Positions 5,236 to 53,723 of a stretch of 64,000 bases of DNA are shown piece by piece (within the stretch, counting starts at the first letter, position 1; each line of letters begins with the position of its first letter). Both the position numbers and the translations under genes were made by a program. Under the pieces are notes generated by a model that did no database searches, was not told the DNA's origin, and was given only the letters and a program-made list of their open reading frames with translations. The stretch is from an uncultured Muribaculaceae bacterium (lineage in GTDB: Bacteria > Bacillota_I > Bacilli_A > RF39 > UBA660), in NCBI GenBank assembly GCA_964473455.1, contig CAYYQX010000002.1, positions 45,086-109,085 of the forward strand, in the 5' to 3' direction.

Positions 5236-5844
5236 ATGAAGAATATAATTAGAATTATTTTAATAACAGTAATATTAGTTTTAGGTTATTTTCTTATAAC
5301 ATATGTTATTAATATTTTTGATAATAGACAAGTAGAAAACACCAAGACCGTAGATTCTATTGAAAACTATGGTTATAATTTAACTAGTAGAGATAGTAAA
5401 CTATATAATACGTTTTTTAACGAATTAAAGGGTGTTTTAGAAGCTGTTTTGGTTGATGAAGACAAATATGTCTCTTTGATTTCTAAGTTGTTTATAATTG
5501 ATTTCTACACGTTAGAAAATAAGTTAAATAATAAAGATATTGGAGGATTAGAATTTGTACACACATTAATTACTGAAAATTTTAAGTTAAAAGCCAAAGA
5601 TACCATTTATAAGTACGTTAAATCAAACTTATATAACAATCGAAATCAAGAGTTACCTGTTGTAAGTGGCGTAAGTGTTGATGAAGTAAAAATTATTACT
5701 TATAAGCTTAATAATTATACAGATGATAAAGCTTACGGAGTAAAGGTTAGTATGACTTATGATAAGGATTTAGGATATGAAACTAGTAAAACATTATATT
5801 TTATCCACGAAGAAAGTAAACTTAGTTTAGTAGAAATAAAATAA
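5236..5844 (+). CDS. hypothetical membrane-anchored/secreted protein
   Basis: 202 aa with a single N-terminal TM or signal anchor. No recognisable motifs. A good RBS-like sequence (ggagaat) lies upstream. Confidence 0.4.
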   Translation: MKNIIRIILITVILVLGYFLITYVINIFDNRQVENTKTVDSIENYGYNLTSRDSKLYNTFFNELKGVLEAVLVDEDKYVSLISKLFIIDFYTLENKLNNKDIGGLEFVHTLITENFKLKAKDTIYKYVKSNLYNNRNQELPVVSGVSVDEVKIITYKLNNYTDDKAYGVKVSMTYDKDLGYETSKTLYFIHEESKLSLVEIK

Positions 5845-30675: not shown

Positions 30676-30749
30676 TGCCTCATGGCCAAGTGGTAAGGCA
30701 GTAGACTCTGACTCTACGATCGTTAGTTCGAATCTGACTGAGGCAGCCA
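30676..30749 (+). tRNA. tRNA-Gln, anticodon CUG
   Basis: Manual cloverleaf. Acceptor stem TGCCTCA/TGAGGCA, D-arm GCCAAGTGGTAAGGC as in Gln tRNAs, anticodon stem GTAGA/TCTAC, anticodon loop CT-CTG-AC, T-arm GTTAG-TTCGAAT-CTGAC, 3' GCCA. Confidence 0.7.
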
Positions 30750-30752
30750 AAC

Positions 30753-30828
30753 GACCTGTTGGTGAAGCGGTTAACACATTGCCCTCTCAAGGCAACATTC
30801 ATGGGTTCAAATCCCATACAGGTTACCA
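30753..30828 (+). tRNA. tRNA-Glu, anticodon CUC
   Basis: Strong similarity to Bacillus tRNA-Glu (GTTGGT.AAGCGGTTAA...GGGTTC.AATCCC.TAC.GGT.ACCA). Anticodon stem TTGCC/GGCAA, anticodon loop CT-CTC-AA, 3' ACCA. Confidence 0.7.
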
Positions 30829-48974: not shown

Positions 48975-50576
48975 ATGACAAAATATGTTTTTGTAACAGG
49001 TGGCGTTTGTTCAGGACTTGGTAAAGGCATAACTGCTTCATCTATTGCCCTGCTTTTAAAAGGTAAAGGTTATAAGGTTTTTATGCAAAAGTTTGATCCT
49101 TATATGAATGTTGATCCAGGTACTATGTCACCCATCCAACACGGTGAAGTTTTTGTTACTGCCGATGGTTGTGAGACTGACTTAGATCTTGGACATTATG
49201 AAAGATTTATTGATGAAGAACTAAATTATACTTCAAATATTACAAGTGGAAAGATTTATTCTTCAGTTATTGAAAAAGAAAGACGTGGAGATTTTTTAGG
49301 TGCGACTATTCAAATAGTTCCCCACATTTCAAATGAGATAAAACATAAAATATATGAAGCTGGAACATCTAGTAAGGCAGATATCGTAATAACAGAAATT
49401 GGTGGGACAGTTGGCGATATTGAGTCGGCTGTAATGTTAGAATCATTAAGACAATTTAAAATGGAAAAAAAAGATGATGTCTTATTTGTTCATACAACTT
49501 TAATCCCCTATTTATATGGTTCTAATGAGCTAAAAACCAAACCAACACAAAATAGTATTATTGAGCTTAGAAAGATTGGTATTCAAGCAGATATTATTGT
49601 TACTAGAGCGTCTATCCCACTAGACGAGTCTATCAAAGAAAAAATAAGCTTATTTGGAAGTATTCCAAAAGAAAACATTATTGAAGCAATTGACGTTAAA
49701 AATATTTATCAAATACCACTAAACTTTCACAATCAAAATATTGAAGAAATTATTCTTAAACATTTTAAATTAAAAAATACTAAAAGTGAGATTAAGTACT
49801 GGGAAGACCTAGTTAATAAAGTAAATAACCTTGATAATGAGATAGAAATAGCGTTAGTTGGTAAATATACTAAGTTAGAGGATGCTTATCTGTCTGTTAA
49901 AGAAAGCCTTAAACACGCCGGATACAAGTATGATACCAAGATTAATATAAAATGGATAGAGTCTGAAACTCTTGAAGAAGAAAAAGCTAATTTAAAAGAA
50001 ATATTTAAAAACAGTAGTGGCATTATCGTTCCAGGCGGATTTGGTTCTCGCGGTATTAAGGGAATGATTAATGCGGTTGAGTATGCTAGAACAAATAATA
50101 TTCCTTTTCTAGGACTTTGTCTTGGTTTACAAATATCTATCATTGAATTTGCCAGAAATGTTTGTGGCCTAAAAGACGCTGATTCTACTGAATTTAATGA
50201 GAATACATCAAACCCAATAATTGATTTGATGGCCGAACAAAAACACATTATTAATATGGGTGGAACGCTTAGACTTGGTAATTATGAATGTCATATTAAG
50301 AAAAATACTTTGGCCTTTAAAGATTATAAAAGTGAAGATATCCTAGAGCGTCATCGCCATCGTTATGAATTTAATAATAAATATAAAGAATTATTAGAAA
50401 ATAAAGGTATGGTTTTTTCAGGAATAAATTTAAAAAGTAACTTGATAGAAATAATTGAACTTCCTAGCCATAAACATTTTATTGCCTGTCAGTTTCACCC
50501 TGAATTTAAGAGTAGACCAAATAGACCACATCCATTATTTGATTCATTTGTTAAAGCAAGTATTAAAAAAAATTAG
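48975..50576 (+). CDS. pyrG: CTP synthase
   Basis: Begins MTKYVFVTGGVCSGLGKG after a GGAAGGAG RBS. Glutamine amidotransferase C-terminal domain present (GLCLGLQ, HRHRYEFN). Confidence 0.9.
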   Translation: MTKYVFVTGGVCSGLGKGITASSIALLLKGKGYKVFMQKFDPYMNVDPGTMSPIQHGEVFVTADGCETDLDLGHYERFIDEELNYTSNITSGKIYSSVIEKERRGDFLGATIQIVPHISNEIKHKIYEAGTSSKADIVITEIGGTVGDIESAVMLESLRQFKMEKKDDVLFVHTTLIPYLYGSNELKTKPTQNSIIELRKIGIQADIIVTRASIPLDESIKEKISLFGSIPKENIIEAIDVKNIYQIPLNFHNQNIEEIILKHFKLKNTKSEIKYWEDLVNKVNNLDNEIEIALVGKYTKLEDAYLSVKESLKHAGYKYDTKINIKWIESETLEEEKANLKEIFKNSSGIIVPGGFGSRGIKGMINAVEYARTNNIPFLGLCLGLQISIIEFARNVCGLKDADSTEFNENTSNPIIDLMAEQKHIINMGGTLRLGNYECHIKKNTLAFKDYKSEDILERHRHRYEFNNKYKELLENKGMVFSGINLKSNLIEIIELPSHKHFIACQFHPEFKSRPNRPHPLFDSFVKASIKKN

Positions 50577-50594
50577 AATTTAACTTCTAATTTT

Positions 50595-51125
50595 TTATTT
50601 ATAAAAAATTGATATTACTTTTGAAAATTTCATAATAATATCTGTACTATTCCTCATTGCAAAACTTTTACCCATGGCTTTTAATCCAATAGTAAGTGAA
50701 GCAATTAATGAAGTTGTAACTAGCGCAACTATAACTTCATAACCAACAAAAATTTTGTTTAATGATGTAATCAACATAACTCCAATACTACCAGAAATAA
50801 TTCCACAGATATCTCCAATAACATCGTTACAGAAGCTAGATACTTTATGAGCATTTTTGATTAATCTAATACCTACTTTTGCTTCTTTAACTTTTCTAGA
50901 GCTTTTAGCATGAAAAGGCATTTCATCAGCTGAAGTTACAGCTACACCTATCATATCAAATACAACACCTAAAAGTATTACAAAAAATAGCACTAATATT
51001 CCGCCAAATAAATTAATTTTTGGCATTATGTTTTCAGTTGCTCCAGAGAATATAAAAGAAATAATAAAGGATAAAAAAATAATTTTTATTATCCAATTAG
51101 TTTGATTGTCTTTTTTCTTTGCCAT
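50595..51125 (-). CDS. hypothetical membrane protein
   Basis: 176 aa with about 4 TM helices. No motif recognised. Confidence 0.35.
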   Translation of the reverse strand: MAKKKDNQTNWIIKIIFLSFIISFIFSGATENIMPKINLFGGILVLFFVILLGVVFDMIGVAVTSADEMPFHAKSSRKVKEAKVGIRLIKNAHKVSSFCNDVIGDICGIISGSIGVMLITSLNKIFVGYEVIVALVTTSLIASLTIGLKAMGKSFAMRNSTDIIMKFSKVISIFYK

Positions 51126-51178: not shown

Positions 51179-51931
51179 TTAGTGTAGTCTGGCTTTATAG
51201 CTTTTTCCTTCCATTTGTGCATCTATAATGCTTGCAAATGTTTTATGTAGTCCTTCCAATTGAACTTCATCCATGTCAATACACATTTCTCTTTCAACAT
51301 AACTTTCTATATCAAAAATCATTTCTTTCAAAAAATTATAATTATAATTTAAAACACAAAAATTTTTTATAAACTTAATAACACAAATAAACAGCAAGCT
51401 TATTTTATTACTATATTTAAATATTTCTGCCTTACTACTTCCTGCATTTATTGTAAGAGCAGTTATCCACATTGCTTCGGTACAATAAGTTATAATATTA
51501 TAAATAAAAGGATTATATTTTTTCATTTTATCAATTTCGTCAAAACCATTTATAATGCAGAAGTTGATTACAGAGATAAGATTTTCTGCAAATAAAACGC
51601 TACCTGTTTCAATTGATTCTTCATCTGCAGAATCAAACATTTTTTCGTAATCAACAGAAAAAAATATGAGTAAATCGTTAAAAGCGCTAGAAAAGTCTTT
51701 TCTTGAAGAATATCCTTGTTTAAAAATATGGCGAGCAAATTCACGAAGTGTTTCAATCAAATTTGCATCAGGATTTAATTTAGAGTCTACGTACTTATAA
51801 AGTAACGTTTTTAAAACTTCTTCACGACAAAACCAATTTATTCTTTTGTCATGCGCAGTTTTATTTAAAATAATCATAATATACTGTTTTGTATAATATT
51901 CGTTAGTTAAATTTTTTCCCATATTTCTCAC
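51179..51931 (-). CDS. hypothetical protein
   Basis: 250 aa, soluble. No motifs recognised. Confidence 0.35.
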   Translation of the reverse strand: MRNMGKNLTNEYYTKQYIMIILNKTAHDKRINWFCREEVLKTLLYKYVDSKLNPDANLIETLREFARHIFKQGYSSRKDFSSAFNDLLIFFSVDYEKMFDSADEESIETGSVLFAENLISVINFCIINGFDEIDKMKKYNPFIYNIITYCTEAMWITALTINAGSSKAEIFKYSNKISLLFICVIKFIKNFCVLNYNYNFLKEMIFDIESYVEREMCIDMDEVQLEGLHKTFASIIDAQMEGKSYKARLH

Positions 51932-51974
51932 TCGAAGTTATATTCTAATACTAATTTTAATTTTTTGCAATAAA

Positions 51975-52550
51975 AAAAACATATGTAAAACATATATTTT
52001 ATTATGTATGGACTTTAATATAGTTAACTTTATGTCTTAGGTCAAGTAGGTTTTCCCTTATTTCTACTAACAATTACTCATTAGCAGTTCCCTTTTAAAG
52101 AAATAAATGCAAAGTCGCCTATTGCATGACTTGATTACCACTTAGTACATACTGTAATCTTATATTATAATGACACTCTAGGAGATTTCCTCAGCAATTT
52201 CGTTTATTATTAATCCTTTTTTGCAAGTATGGTTTCAATTACAGTATTTAAATCAATTTGGCCAAACTAATTTAAATAGAACTAATTATCCCCCATATTC
52301 ACTCAAGGCAAGCTACACTACCCGTAACGTTAGCCACATGGTAGGTTTAATCCCGTTTCATAGTAAACTATGAAATAGGTCTCAACTAAATTCTGGGTCA
52401 TATGTCGTATGCCATTACGGTTGCCCAAAATCTATTTCTTTCAGCACTCACCCAAGACTGGGCGTCTAAAGCAAGCACAAAAAGCTTCATCGGTATGCTC
52501 TTTAACGGTATTTTAACCCCGTCTTCATAACAAACTATTTTGACTAGAAT
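51975..52550 (-). ncRNA. candidate large structured non-coding RNA (~570 nt), identity unknown
   Basis: An ORF-free stretch in all six frames, with clearly higher GC than its flanks. Contains many hairpins, e.g. UUCAUAG-UUUAC-CUAUGAA, CCCAGUCUUGGG and CUACC...UAACGUUA...GGUAG. On the minus strand there is an extended -10-like TGTTATGAA near 52520-52528 followed by GGGG. At the low-coordinate end there is an intrinsic terminator AUAUAUG-UUUUA-CAUAUGU plus U8 (plus strand 51975-52003). tagO appears to have its own terminator at 52565-52604. Confidence 0.3.
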
Positions 52551-52640
52551 AATGTACCATCACATATATTTAGAAAAAAATAGCGATAGGAAAATATTAC
52601 CGTATTTTCCCATCTCTGTTAACATATTAGCACTTTTTAG

Positions 52641-53723
52641 CTATTTTGTCAAATTTTTCCTTTCAAATATAACATTTGTCTTAAGGACAAACAGTGTGAC
52701 AATAACAAATAATACCGCATAAATTATATAACCTAATACTCGATTATTTATAACATATACAATAGAAGCTAGAGAAAAAAGGACATTAATTACATAAATT
52801 ATTAAAACTGTTTTTGGATGTGAAAATTTTTTATTTAATAATTGATGATGAATGTGACACTTGTCTGGCATTGATACTTTTTGACCTTTTAATTTTCTTC
52901 TTAAAATGGCAAATAATGTATCTAATATTGGAATGGCTAGTATTAATAAAGGAACAACTATGGCAGAAGCTAATACGTTTTTAAAGCCTAACAAAGTTAT
53001 TATTGAAATAATAAAGCCTAAGAATAAAGATCCAGAGTCACCCATAAATATCTTAGCTGGATAGAAATTATGAATCAAAAACCCTAAACAAGCTCCAAGC
53101 ATGATAAAAGTAAGCTGAAAAGGAAGTGCGAACTGTCCTAATATTACAGTTATAATTCCAATAGTTAAAAAATAAATTGAACTAATTCCTGCCGCAAGAC
53201 CATCTAACCCGTCAATCAAATTCATACAGTTAATACAACCAAGCATAAATAAAATAGTAATCGGATAAGCAAAAATACCAAAATTTATATAAATACCAAA
53301 AGCATTAATTTCATTTAAAATAATCCCACCATAAACTACTACTATCAATGAGGCGATAAATTGAAAAAGAAGCTTTATTTTTGCAGAAATAGGTTTTATA
53401 TCATCCATTATACCAATAAATACAATAATAAAACTTCCAATTAATATAGATATCATTTTGTCATTAATAATCCCAAAAACCATATAGCCAAATAAAAATG
53501 CAGTATATATCGCAAGGCCGCCCATTCTTGGCATTGGAACCTTATGAACTTTTCTCTCATCAGGCTTGTCCATCGCACCAATATAAATCGCTAATTTTTT
53601 AATAATTGGGACAATTAAAACAGAAATTAAGAATGCAGATGAGATCATAAGTAATATTTCAAGAACTATTTTATCCATAAACTTCACCATGCTAATATTA
53701 ACACAATTTCTAAAACTTGACAA
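52641..53723 (-). CDS. tagO: undecaprenyl-phosphate N-acetylhexosamine-1-phosphate transferase (TagO/WecA family, PNPT superfamily)
   Basis: 360 aa with about 10-11 TM helices. Cytoplasmic loop motifs DDIKPISAKIKL and MPDKCHIHHQLL (HIHH). Size matches TagO/WecA rather than MraY. Confidence 0.7.
   Translation of the reverse strand: MSSFRNCVNISMVKFMDKIVLEILLMISSAFLISVLIVPIIKKLAIYIGAMDKPDERKVHKVPMPRMGGLAIYTAFLFGYMVFGIINDKMISILIGSFIIVFIGIMDDIKPISAKIKLLFQFIASLIVVVYGGIILNEINAFGIYINFGIFAYPITILFMLGCINCMNLIDGLDGLAAGISSIYFLTIGIITVILGQFALPFQLTFIMLGACLGFLIHNFYPAKIFMGDSGSLFLGFIISIITLLGFKNVLASAIVVPLLILAIPILDTLFAILRRKLKGQKVSMPDKCHIHHQLLNKKFSHPKTVLIIYVINVLFSLASIVYVINNRVLGYIIYAVLFVIVTLFVLKTNVIFERKNLTK

Follow-up and report, generated by a model that had tools for sequence, protein, structure and literature searches.

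OLE RNAs and their protein partners

The OLE (ornate, large, extremophilic) RNAs, a class described in 2006, are among the largest bacterial noncoding RNAs whose biochemical activity is still unknown in any organism, and the well-characterised examples all come from a few cultured Firmicutes. The locus considered here lies in a stretch of 64,000 nucleotides of contig CAYYQX010000002.1 (assembly GCA_964473455.1, filed as an uncultured Muribaculaceae bacterium), which was analysed as a whole and is called the window below. An OLE gene occupies its minus strand in an intergenic region of 0.6 kb that had been left blank, downstream of the glycosyltransferase gene tagO and upstream of an orphan gene and a gene of the oapA type. 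An earlier note, made from the letters and their open reading frames (ORFs), had proposed for this region a large structured noncoding RNA of the minus strand, and the Rfam scan returned OLE at full length, with strand and interval almost exactly as flagged.

In Halalkalibacterium halodurans, OLE is an abundant RNA that is bound by OapA, OapB, OapC and bS21, is held at the membrane by OapA, and is required if the cells are to tolerate ethanol, cold, excess Mg2+ and poor carbon sources; its gene lies inside a long operon transcript (PMC12265935, PMC9723947). In addition, the RNA is served by a promoter of its own, and a discrete species of ~630 nt builds up (PMC9723947). According to the passage of PMC12286853 on two Clostridium OLE structures obtained by cryo-electron microscopy (cryo-EM), the RNA forms a homodimer through the A-rich loop L4, the L5/L6(/L7) loops and a kissing loop made by the palindromic tip of P9, and the same passage reports the switching of palindromes at this tip as evidence for the intermolecular contact. 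The Breaker laboratory has moreover proposed that the P3 helices cross the bilayer, leaving domain 2 outside the cytoplasm (PMC12265935). The OapB site has been defined as a P13 stem with a single-nucleotide bulge and a GNRA tetraloop (PMC7936274), while OapA is distinguished by four helices, a CNNM-like score below that of MpfA, CorB (7M1U) as best structural match and a distinctive DxxxD motif that is reported absent from CNNM domains (PMC11332333). In the same work, a survey of GTDB gave 2,822 OLE hits in Bacillota, and three types are told apart. Besides the full-length RNAs there are variant 1, typical of TANB77, in which P7-P9 are short and the OapB site is often missing, and variant 2, common in RF39, which has neither P7 nor P8 (PMC11332333).

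Identification of the OLE gene

The whole window was scanned with Rfam 15 at the curated thresholds, the gathering score of the OLE model (RF01071) being 50. The match to this model reached 380.5 bits (E 3.1e-108) at positions 51992-52576 of the minus strand; it is untruncated, covering model positions 1-616 of 616 in 585 nt. Apart from it, the window gave just two hits, the adjacent tRNA genes at 30676-30746 and 30753-30825 (both plus strand), with none at threshold for RNase P, tmRNA, ROOL, GOLLD, raiA, 6S or SRP. OLE, ROOL and GOLLD had been the candidates put forward in the earlier note, of which the first proved right and the other two fell below threshold; tmRNA and RNase P had been set aside, and the anticipated length of ~570 nt was slightly short of the match.

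Parsing of the alignment to the model showed that 149 of 159 base pairs are retained, 137 of these as canonical pairs (92%), and that the window RNA is identical to the model at 211 of the 249 consensus nucleotides written in upper case. Many of the 38 deviating positions are clade-wide differences, present in the clade consensus. Sizeable deletions are limited to two places: distal P7, which has lost 15 positions, and model positions 424-433, where a small hairpin is missing. When folded without constraints, the 585 nt give a minimum free energy (MFE) of -141.7 kcal/mol (z = -3.5 against dinucleotide shuffles). The enrichment in GC that had drawn attention to the region was borne out as well, with 0.332 in the match against 0.269 in the whole window, a value equalled by 1.6% of the 585-nt windows. 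The same holds for the lack of ORFs: the longest one inside 51932-52640, in any frame, has 50 aa (52221-52373, plus strand), and a single ORF of 60 aa (52540-52722, plus strand) straddles the end of tagO.

The full-length match to RF01071, together with the compensatory changes across relatives presented below, identifies the blank stretch as an OLE RNA gene with near certainty, and nothing found argues against this identity.

Conservation and covariation among relatives

A profile made from 30 OapA-type homologues led to 80 loci in GTDB species representatives, nearly all of them gut metagenome-assembled genomes (MAGs) labelled Bacilli, Bacillota, Tenericutes or Mollicutes; among them is Clostridium sp. 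CAG:302, presumably an RF39 lineage. Searched with nhmmer using the window RNA as query, 76 of the 80 loci presented an OLE homologue upstream of the oapA homologue and on the same strand, the closest ones being 78-79% identical to the query. The window copy and 71 full-length relatives from uncultured gut Bacilli were then placed in one alignment of 72 sequences (A2), onto which the Rfam structure was projected from the row of the window, a procedure that somewhat inflates the percentages of paired positions but not the compensatory counts.

In this alignment, 86.2% of the pair cells hold standard pairs, a share that drops to 36-44% once the 3' partners are shifted by 1-3 columns; changes on both sides are seen in 112 of the 149 pairs, distributed over 20 helices. 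The covariation score was 0.388 against about 0.09 for the control, and none of 500 shuffles attained any of the observed measures. The cross-species conservation with compensatory changes that the earlier note had named as a check on its proposal is thus present. Among the runs that are invariant in the window and the 71 relatives are AUUAUUCUAGUC, GCCCAG, GGCAU, GUGUAGCUUG, CUAAGUGG and GACCUAAG; in addition, a nearly invariant block, ATGG(C/U)ACAUUAUUCUAGUC, stands near the OLE 5' end.

Architecture of the RNA

Stem names P4-P9 and P13 were mapped onto the Rfam structure line by inference from the text of the papers, with P4 as the hairpin bearing the A-rich loop, P5 and P6 as those with complementary loops, J6/7 as the junction after P6, and P9 as the long arm with GGCC at its tip. 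The parts so recognised are as follows.

51992-52576, minus strand: OLE RNA gene, full-length match to RF01071 (model 1-616).
52554-52566, minus strand: 5' strand of P1, UAUGUGAUGGUAC, which pairs with 52003-52013; the functional RNA reaches at least this far on its 5' side.
52003-52013, minus strand: 3' strand of P1, which sets the minimum 3' extent of the functional RNA.
52527-52535, minus strand: 5' strand of P3, GUUUGUUAU, which pairs with 52202-52210 (AUAAUAAAC) in a 9-bp duplex.
52504-52523, minus strand: P4 hairpin with A-rich loop UUAAAAUA (model 54-73; helix 1, 93% paired, both-side changes in 5 of 6 pairs).
52438-52484, minus strand: P5/P5.1 hairpin, with a GCCCA loop invariant in the 72 sequences (model 93-139; helix 2, 90% paired).
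52387-52434, minus strand: P6/P6.1 hairpin, with an invariant AAUGGCAU loop complementary to the P5.1 loop (model 144-190; helices 3-5).
52352-52379, minus strand: P7, strongly shortened through deletion of 15 model positions (model 198-241).
52318-52344, minus strand: P8 hairpin (model 249-277; helix 8, 84% paired).
52214-52309, minus strand: P9 long arm, with a GGCC palindrome in the terminal loop at 52260-52263 (model 286-383; helices 9-13).
52014-52192, minus strand: domain 2, comprising a small hairpin and the P10-P15 multi-stem region (model 404-595; helices 14-20, 91-100% paired).

Within domain 2, helices 15 and 18-20 show compensatory changes at every pair. The three inverted repeats quoted in the earlier note are all present and turn out to be pieces of OLE stems: ttcatag/ctatgaa (52357-52374) is found in P7, although its loop has 4 nt (taaa) and not the taaac originally read, cccaagactggg (52450-52461) lies inside P5, and ctacc..taacgtta..ggtag (52318-52345) corresponds to P8.

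P1 and P3 are part of the current published model and absent from the Rfam structure line, and were evaluated independently of any alignment by comparing the duplex energies of cognate and non-cognate strands. For P1 (68 sequences) these were -10.95 and -8.92 kcal/mol, respectively (p 4e-9), and for P3 -8.54 and -4.39 kcal/mol (p 1e-28); the unconstrained MFE fold contains both stems as well. The candidate strands of P2 are invariant and carry no covariation signal.

At the level of sequence, the loops used for dimerisation are retained in the window RNA, namely the A-rich L4, the complementary pair L5.1/L6.1 and the palindromic P9 tip. The P9-tip loop reads UUUGGCCAAA, and its central tetranucleotide alternates among relatives between GGCC, AGCU and GUAC (A2 columns about 395-398), all of them palindromes. 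As a side observation, GUAC is not among the alternatives named in the passage of PMC12286853 that deals with this tip. The elements of the OapB site are retained too: P13 combines a one-nucleotide bulge with the GNRA loop GCGA at 52115-52118 (AUGCA-A-UAG[GCGA]CUUUGCAU), as the definition of that site requires (PMC7936274). One U-U mismatch adjoins the GCGA loop, and a second GNRA loop in domain 2 reads GUAA.

On this mapping of the stems, the window RNA is a full-length OLE with a truncated P7. It shares with this type (PMC11332333) all Rfam stems but the one at model 424-433, the presence of P7, P8 and P9, the bulge and GNRA loop of P13, the GGCC tip of P9, a downstream oapA on the same strand and, probably, a host lineage in Bacillota. 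It differs from it in a P7 of about half the usual length (the segment, of 31 nt, is the shortest of 65 measured, the median being 58 and the longest 89), in the loss of the P4a palindrome, in helices rich in AU and GU pairs at 33% GC, and in the unrelated gene that parts ole from oapA. Variant 2 of RF39 is without P7 and P8 altogether, whereas both are found here; with variant 1 of TANB77 the window RNA has only the short P7 in common, P8 and P9 being full length and the P13 loop and bulge present. The nearest relatives of the window are, as for variants 1 and 2, uncultured MAGs of gut Bacilli or "Tenericutes".

The OapA-type partner gene

50595-51125, minus strand: oapA-type gene, 176 aa, belonging to the family of OLE's membrane-protein partner.

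This gene is intact, lies 866 nt downstream of OLE on the same strand and is preceded by a good ribosome-binding site. Its product presents four hydrophobic segments, a K/R-rich loop at residues 66-95 and a DxxxD motif at 101-105, the latter inside the family-invariant block VSSFCNDVxGD, with all invariant residues of the family kept. Its score against the CNNM domain of Pfam, 22.3 bits, stays below the cut-off of 28.4. The protein has 4,347 homologues, of which the closest non-identical ones (59-63% identity) come from uncultured "Bacilli bacterium" MAGs. An AlphaFold model based on the family alignment (pLDDT 84.7) had as top fold matches in the PDB MtCorB (7M1T, 7M1U) and the transmembrane domain of CorC (7CFF, 7CFG), while sequence searches of the PDB with the protein and with the family profile gave no hit. 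Because the CNNM-like score, the DxxxD motif, the four segments and the CorB-type fold reproduce the pattern described for OapA, sequence and model together point to this gene being oapA.

Set beside H. halodurans OapA by description, the protein is alike in size (~180 aa), four predicted transmembrane helices, DxxxD, basic loop, sub-threshold CNNM score and CorB/CorC fold, the difference being that its gene is not immediately adjacent to ole. MpfA, CorB and CorC, which are CNNM Mg2+ transporters, share the transmembrane fold with it; unlike them, it has neither CBS nor CorC/HlyC domains, remains under the CNNM cut-off and carries DxxxD. For mpfA, an anticorrelation has been reported; of the other partners known from H. 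halodurans, OapB is a KOW/SBB protein and OapC belongs to the YbxF/L7Ae family. Between the convergent pyrG and oapA genes there is an inverted repeat of the perfect-loop kind (50567-50596, with 15-nt arms, 93% complementary), which is likely a bidirectional terminator.

The orphan gene between ole and oapA

51179-51922, minus strand: orphan gene, 247 aa from ATG 51922 (250 aa from GTG 51931), with a product predicted to be all-helical and non-membrane.

The orphan protein belongs to no Pfam or NCBIfam family, a word-indexed search of 5.8 billion clustered proteins retrieved nothing but itself, and the gene is absent from all 80 related loci. An exhaustive HMMER search of 1.84 billion representatives produced a single borderline relative, P0124 (290 aa; E 5.7e-4; 27% identity over 167 aa by BLASTP). 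Its gene lies on a Logan contig (L082) that has no OLE, with genes for a YtxH protein and a sigma-70 family factor as neighbours. A second candidate, P0123 (935 aa with ~15 tandem repeats), owes its E-value of 8e-16 to many short stretches and was rejected as an artefact of repeats and composition. Flanking repeats, sought around the gene as a signature of insertion, yielded none of note, and the single-sequence AlphaFold model (pLDDT 38.6) was not used. As 250 codons are unlikely to stay open by chance in DNA of 26% GC, the ORF is regarded as a real gene, probably fast-evolving or recently acquired. A plausible ribosome-binding site precedes it, and 53 nt separate its end from oapA. It is tied to OLE by position alone, with nothing linking the two functionally.

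The distance between ole and oapA varies among the relatives. In 64 of 76 loci it does not exceed 134 nt (median 80 nt), while in the other 12 a gap of 365-5811 nt holds genes on the same strand. Time and again these are genes of envelope polysaccharides, coding for polysaccharide deacetylases, GT2 glycosyltransferases or small EamA proteins in pairs, along with unannotated proteins of ~500 aa; one locus has an AMP-binding enzyme together with a hybrid histidine kinase. The loci with wide gaps include L002 (2825-6001), L026, L048, L075, L070, L043, L076, L061 and L010.

Transcription signals around the OLE gene

52641-53723, minus strand: tagO, a WecA/TagO-type family 4 glycosyltransferase gene, the upstream neighbour, which ends 64 nt before the Rfam match.
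52624-52652, minus strand: best promoter-like site upstream of OLE, TTGACA, 17 nt, TGCTAATAT (extended -10), scoring 10/12 plus TG as a consensus match only.
52574-52614, minus strand: terminator-like hairpin with U7 between tagO and OLE (stem 52614-52585, dG -14.6, z -4.7).
51972-52000, minus strand: AU-rich hairpin with a U-run directly after OLE (11-bp stem at 52000-51976, dG -7 kcal/mol, z -1.9).
51942-51970, minus strand: promoter-like TTGCAA, 17 nt, TAGAAT, which precedes the orphan gene and oapA, scoring 9/12 as a consensus match only.

Of 74 loci surveyed for promoters (73 relatives and the window), 68 carry the motif TGnTAnnnT in the 75 nt that precede OLE, mostly at a distance of 16-24 nt from the conserved block. 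It is accompanied by TTGACA at the right spacing (~17 nt), giving a consensus, AATTTGACAAA-N-TGATATAAT, that corresponds to a near-consensus sigma-A promoter. In the relatives L002-L081 it sits about 20-60 nt upstream of OLE (in L062, for example, at about 5300-5352), and the start predicted from it would be separated from the P1 strand by just about 4-11 nt.

The extended -10 that the earlier note had read in TGTTATGAA (minus strand, about 52520-52530) exists as a string, but its role as a promoter had to be abandoned. Positions 52520-52528 are not a promoter because they lie inside the conserved RNA, ~50 nt into the Rfam match, and on the 5' strand of P3 (52535-52527), TGTTAT being the 3' end of this strand and GAA the conserved junction that precedes P4. 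The ~45 nt upstream of the supposed -10 are conserved as well, comprising ATGGCACATTATTCTAGTC, nearly invariant in the 72 sequences, and the P1 strand. Another candidate, TTAACA-17-TAATAT (52622-52594), internal to the upstream hairpin, was rejected for a spacing to OLE that fits neither the relatives in general nor L002. The site at 52652-52624 has the same form as the consensus of the relatives; its distance to OLE is ~48 nt greater, the hairpin lies in between, and the -35 of the site overlaps the final codons of tagO.

The hairpin that follows tagO had been noticed before, about 10 nt away from its actual position, and ascribed to tagO. Its existence stands, and the ascription is doubtful. 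The hairpin core, GGGAAAAUACGGUAAUAUUUUCC, is common to the window and its two nearest relatives, with the pattern GGGAAA(A)UA(A/C)GGUAAUAUUU(U)CC, and among the relatives this hairpin is seen upstream of OLE only in these two, L002 and L004. In all three, it follows a promoter-like element to form one unit, AAATTTGAC..AAAAAGTGCTAWWAT and then the hairpin (window 52574-52652, minus strand; L002 about 2170-2215; L004 about 5275-5345). After the hairpin, the canonical OLE promoter is present in L004 and absent in L002. Since the gene upstream of the hairpin is tagO in the window and one of the sulfatase family in L002 and L004, the hairpin travels with the ole locus and could be a part of the OLE leader instead of a tagO element. 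It may terminate transcription of the upstream operon, serve as an attenuator or stabilise the 5' end.

At the other end, the AU hairpin and U-run proposed in the earlier note are present (52000-51972), albeit weak. The terminator scan requires at least 3 G-C pairs and therefore did not report this hairpin, which can be taken as a weak candidate for an intrinsic terminator.

An independent OLE transcript is plausible. Most likely, transcription would begin at TTGACA/TGCTAATAT (52652-52624) or come in from tagO by read-through, and continue through the leader hairpin. The AU hairpin and the U-run behind it (52000-51972) would then terminate the transcript, and the orphan gene and oapA would be supplied by read-through or from the TTGCAA/TAGAAT site.

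The explanation that competes best with this picture is that the region has no product of its own and merely forms the 3' untranslated tail of the tagO mRNA. The two are on the same strand and separated by just 64 nt, no strong promoter is seen between the hairpin and OLE, and ole of H. halodurans is itself embedded in a long operon transcript. That same RNA, however, also has a promoter of its own and exists as a discrete ~630-nt molecule; the arrangement TTGACA-17-TGnTAnnnT directly precedes OLE in 68 of the 74 loci, and P1 joins both ends of the element into a closed unit. A mere tail is accordingly judged unlikely, and co-transcription with tagO would in any case leave the identity of the RNA unchanged.

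Genomic neighbourhood and host

The classical ole locus is flanked by isoprenoid, DNA-repair and translation genes. Unlike it, the window locus is surrounded by envelope genes, with tagO, a PASTA-repeat protein, a large glucosaminidase-domain surface protein and an Amidase_3 protein, besides pyrG, a PP-loop (TilS-like) protein, MutS and a type II/IV secretion ATPase. tagO is syntenic in L004, L006, L052, L033 and L002. The closest synteny is that of L004, with the order PASTA, tagO, sulfatase-family gene, OLE, oapA, FtsX/ABC pair and pyrG, the sulfatase-family gene that separates tagO from OLE in L002 and L004 being LtaS-like. An envelope context is one of the broad categories of neighbours already listed for ole, and a connection between OLE and the cell wall has been the subject of published speculation (PMC12265935). 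At the far end of tagO, its longest ORF (minus strand, TTG 53723) overlaps the divergent PASTA gene (plus strand, ATG 53689) head to head by 35 nt (53689-53723), and the true starts of both genes are probably internal.

These neighbours show that the organism has a peptidoglycan wall. The nearest OapA and OLE relatives come from MAGs labelled Bacilli, Bacillota, Tenericutes or Mollicutes, with a few labelled Muribaculaceae or Bacteroidaceae. The host, uncultured, wall-bearing and AT-rich (27% GC), probably belongs to the Bacilli. Contigs with OLE and oapA that are filed under Bacteroidaceae or Muribaculaceae MAGs are L026, L034, L035, L067, L068, L069, L071, L078 and L081. Such labels probably result from mis-binning or mislabelling, in parallel to the 24 non-Bacillota OLE hits that were set aside by Fernando and Breaker (PMC11332333).

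Is the RNA functional?

By analogy with H. halodurans and the Clostridium cryo-EM structures, the window RNA would consist of two domains joined by the P3 helix and form a homodimer, to which the four-helix, CNNM-like OapA would bind, holding the RNA at the cell membrane. The resulting particle may help the cell under stress, for instance from short-chain alcohols, cold, excess Mg2+ or poor carbon sources.

Several observations weigh against a working RNA of this kind. The canonical OLE promoter, sought at the homologous place (window 52576-52590), is reduced to CGCTATTTT, with no -35; the leader hairpin stands between the best promoter candidate and OLE, so that expression is not assured; a possible terminator comes right after OLE, and an extra gene separates ole from oapA. 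In the RNA itself P7 is truncated, and the P4a site (about 52488-52499) reads ACCGAUG, with ACCGAU replacing AUCGAU, so that the palindrome is lost. The palindrome of the Rfam consensus, CAUCGAUG, a reported contact of OapA, is likewise absent in most of the clade (AUCUGUG; A2 columns 101-113).

The lost promoter, the terminator-like hairpin, the shortest P7 of the set and the gene that uncouples ole from oapA would also be expected of a decaying or silent relic, that is, an OLE by descent that this lineage has ceased to make or use, and so would the 38 of 249 highly conserved positions that deviate from the Rfam consensus. Yet many of these deviations are clade-wide, and short P7 variants are known in other genomes (PMC11332333) as well as among the relatives. 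Moreover, 92% of the retained pairs are canonical, the dimerisation loops, GNRA loops and invariant blocks are intact, and oapA keeps every invariant residue together with its ribosome-binding site. Decay is thus held to be very unlikely. As for a decayed protein gene or another large RNA (RNase P, tmRNA, ROOL, GOLLD, raiA, 6S or SRP), no point in favour was found, just the two tRNAs reach a gathering score besides OLE, the substitutions of the relatives preserve base pairs and not reading frames, and no internal ORF exceeds 50 aa, which leaves this option with a vanishingly small probability.

Beyond a functional OLE of the known kind, it may be imagined that the orphan protein, its gene probably co-transcribed with oapA, serves the OLE particle as a component or regulator peculiar to this lineage, that the moved promoter and leader hairpin provide a control of the attenuation type, and that the envelope genes around the locus reflect a functional tie to envelope biogenesis. 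This combination is improbable. If it were true, the recurrence of tagO, LtaS-like genes, GT2 glycosyltransferases, EamA pairs and polysaccharide deacetylases around, and even between, ole and oapA would reveal a link between the OLE particle and the envelope.

Significance

OLE is a known class that can be recognised by a routine Rfam scan, and the window copy is in this respect an ordinary annotation of something already known. What is settled by it is the content of a blank intergenic stretch of 0.6 kb, with the neighbouring "hypothetical" membrane protein now named as OapA. As an AU-rich, P7-truncated copy from gut Bacilli, the RNA brings modest comparative information on the parts of OLE that are dispensable. 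Its placement amid envelope genes, with an orphan gene before oapA, is likewise of small comparative value, and leaves the knowledge of the class as it stood.

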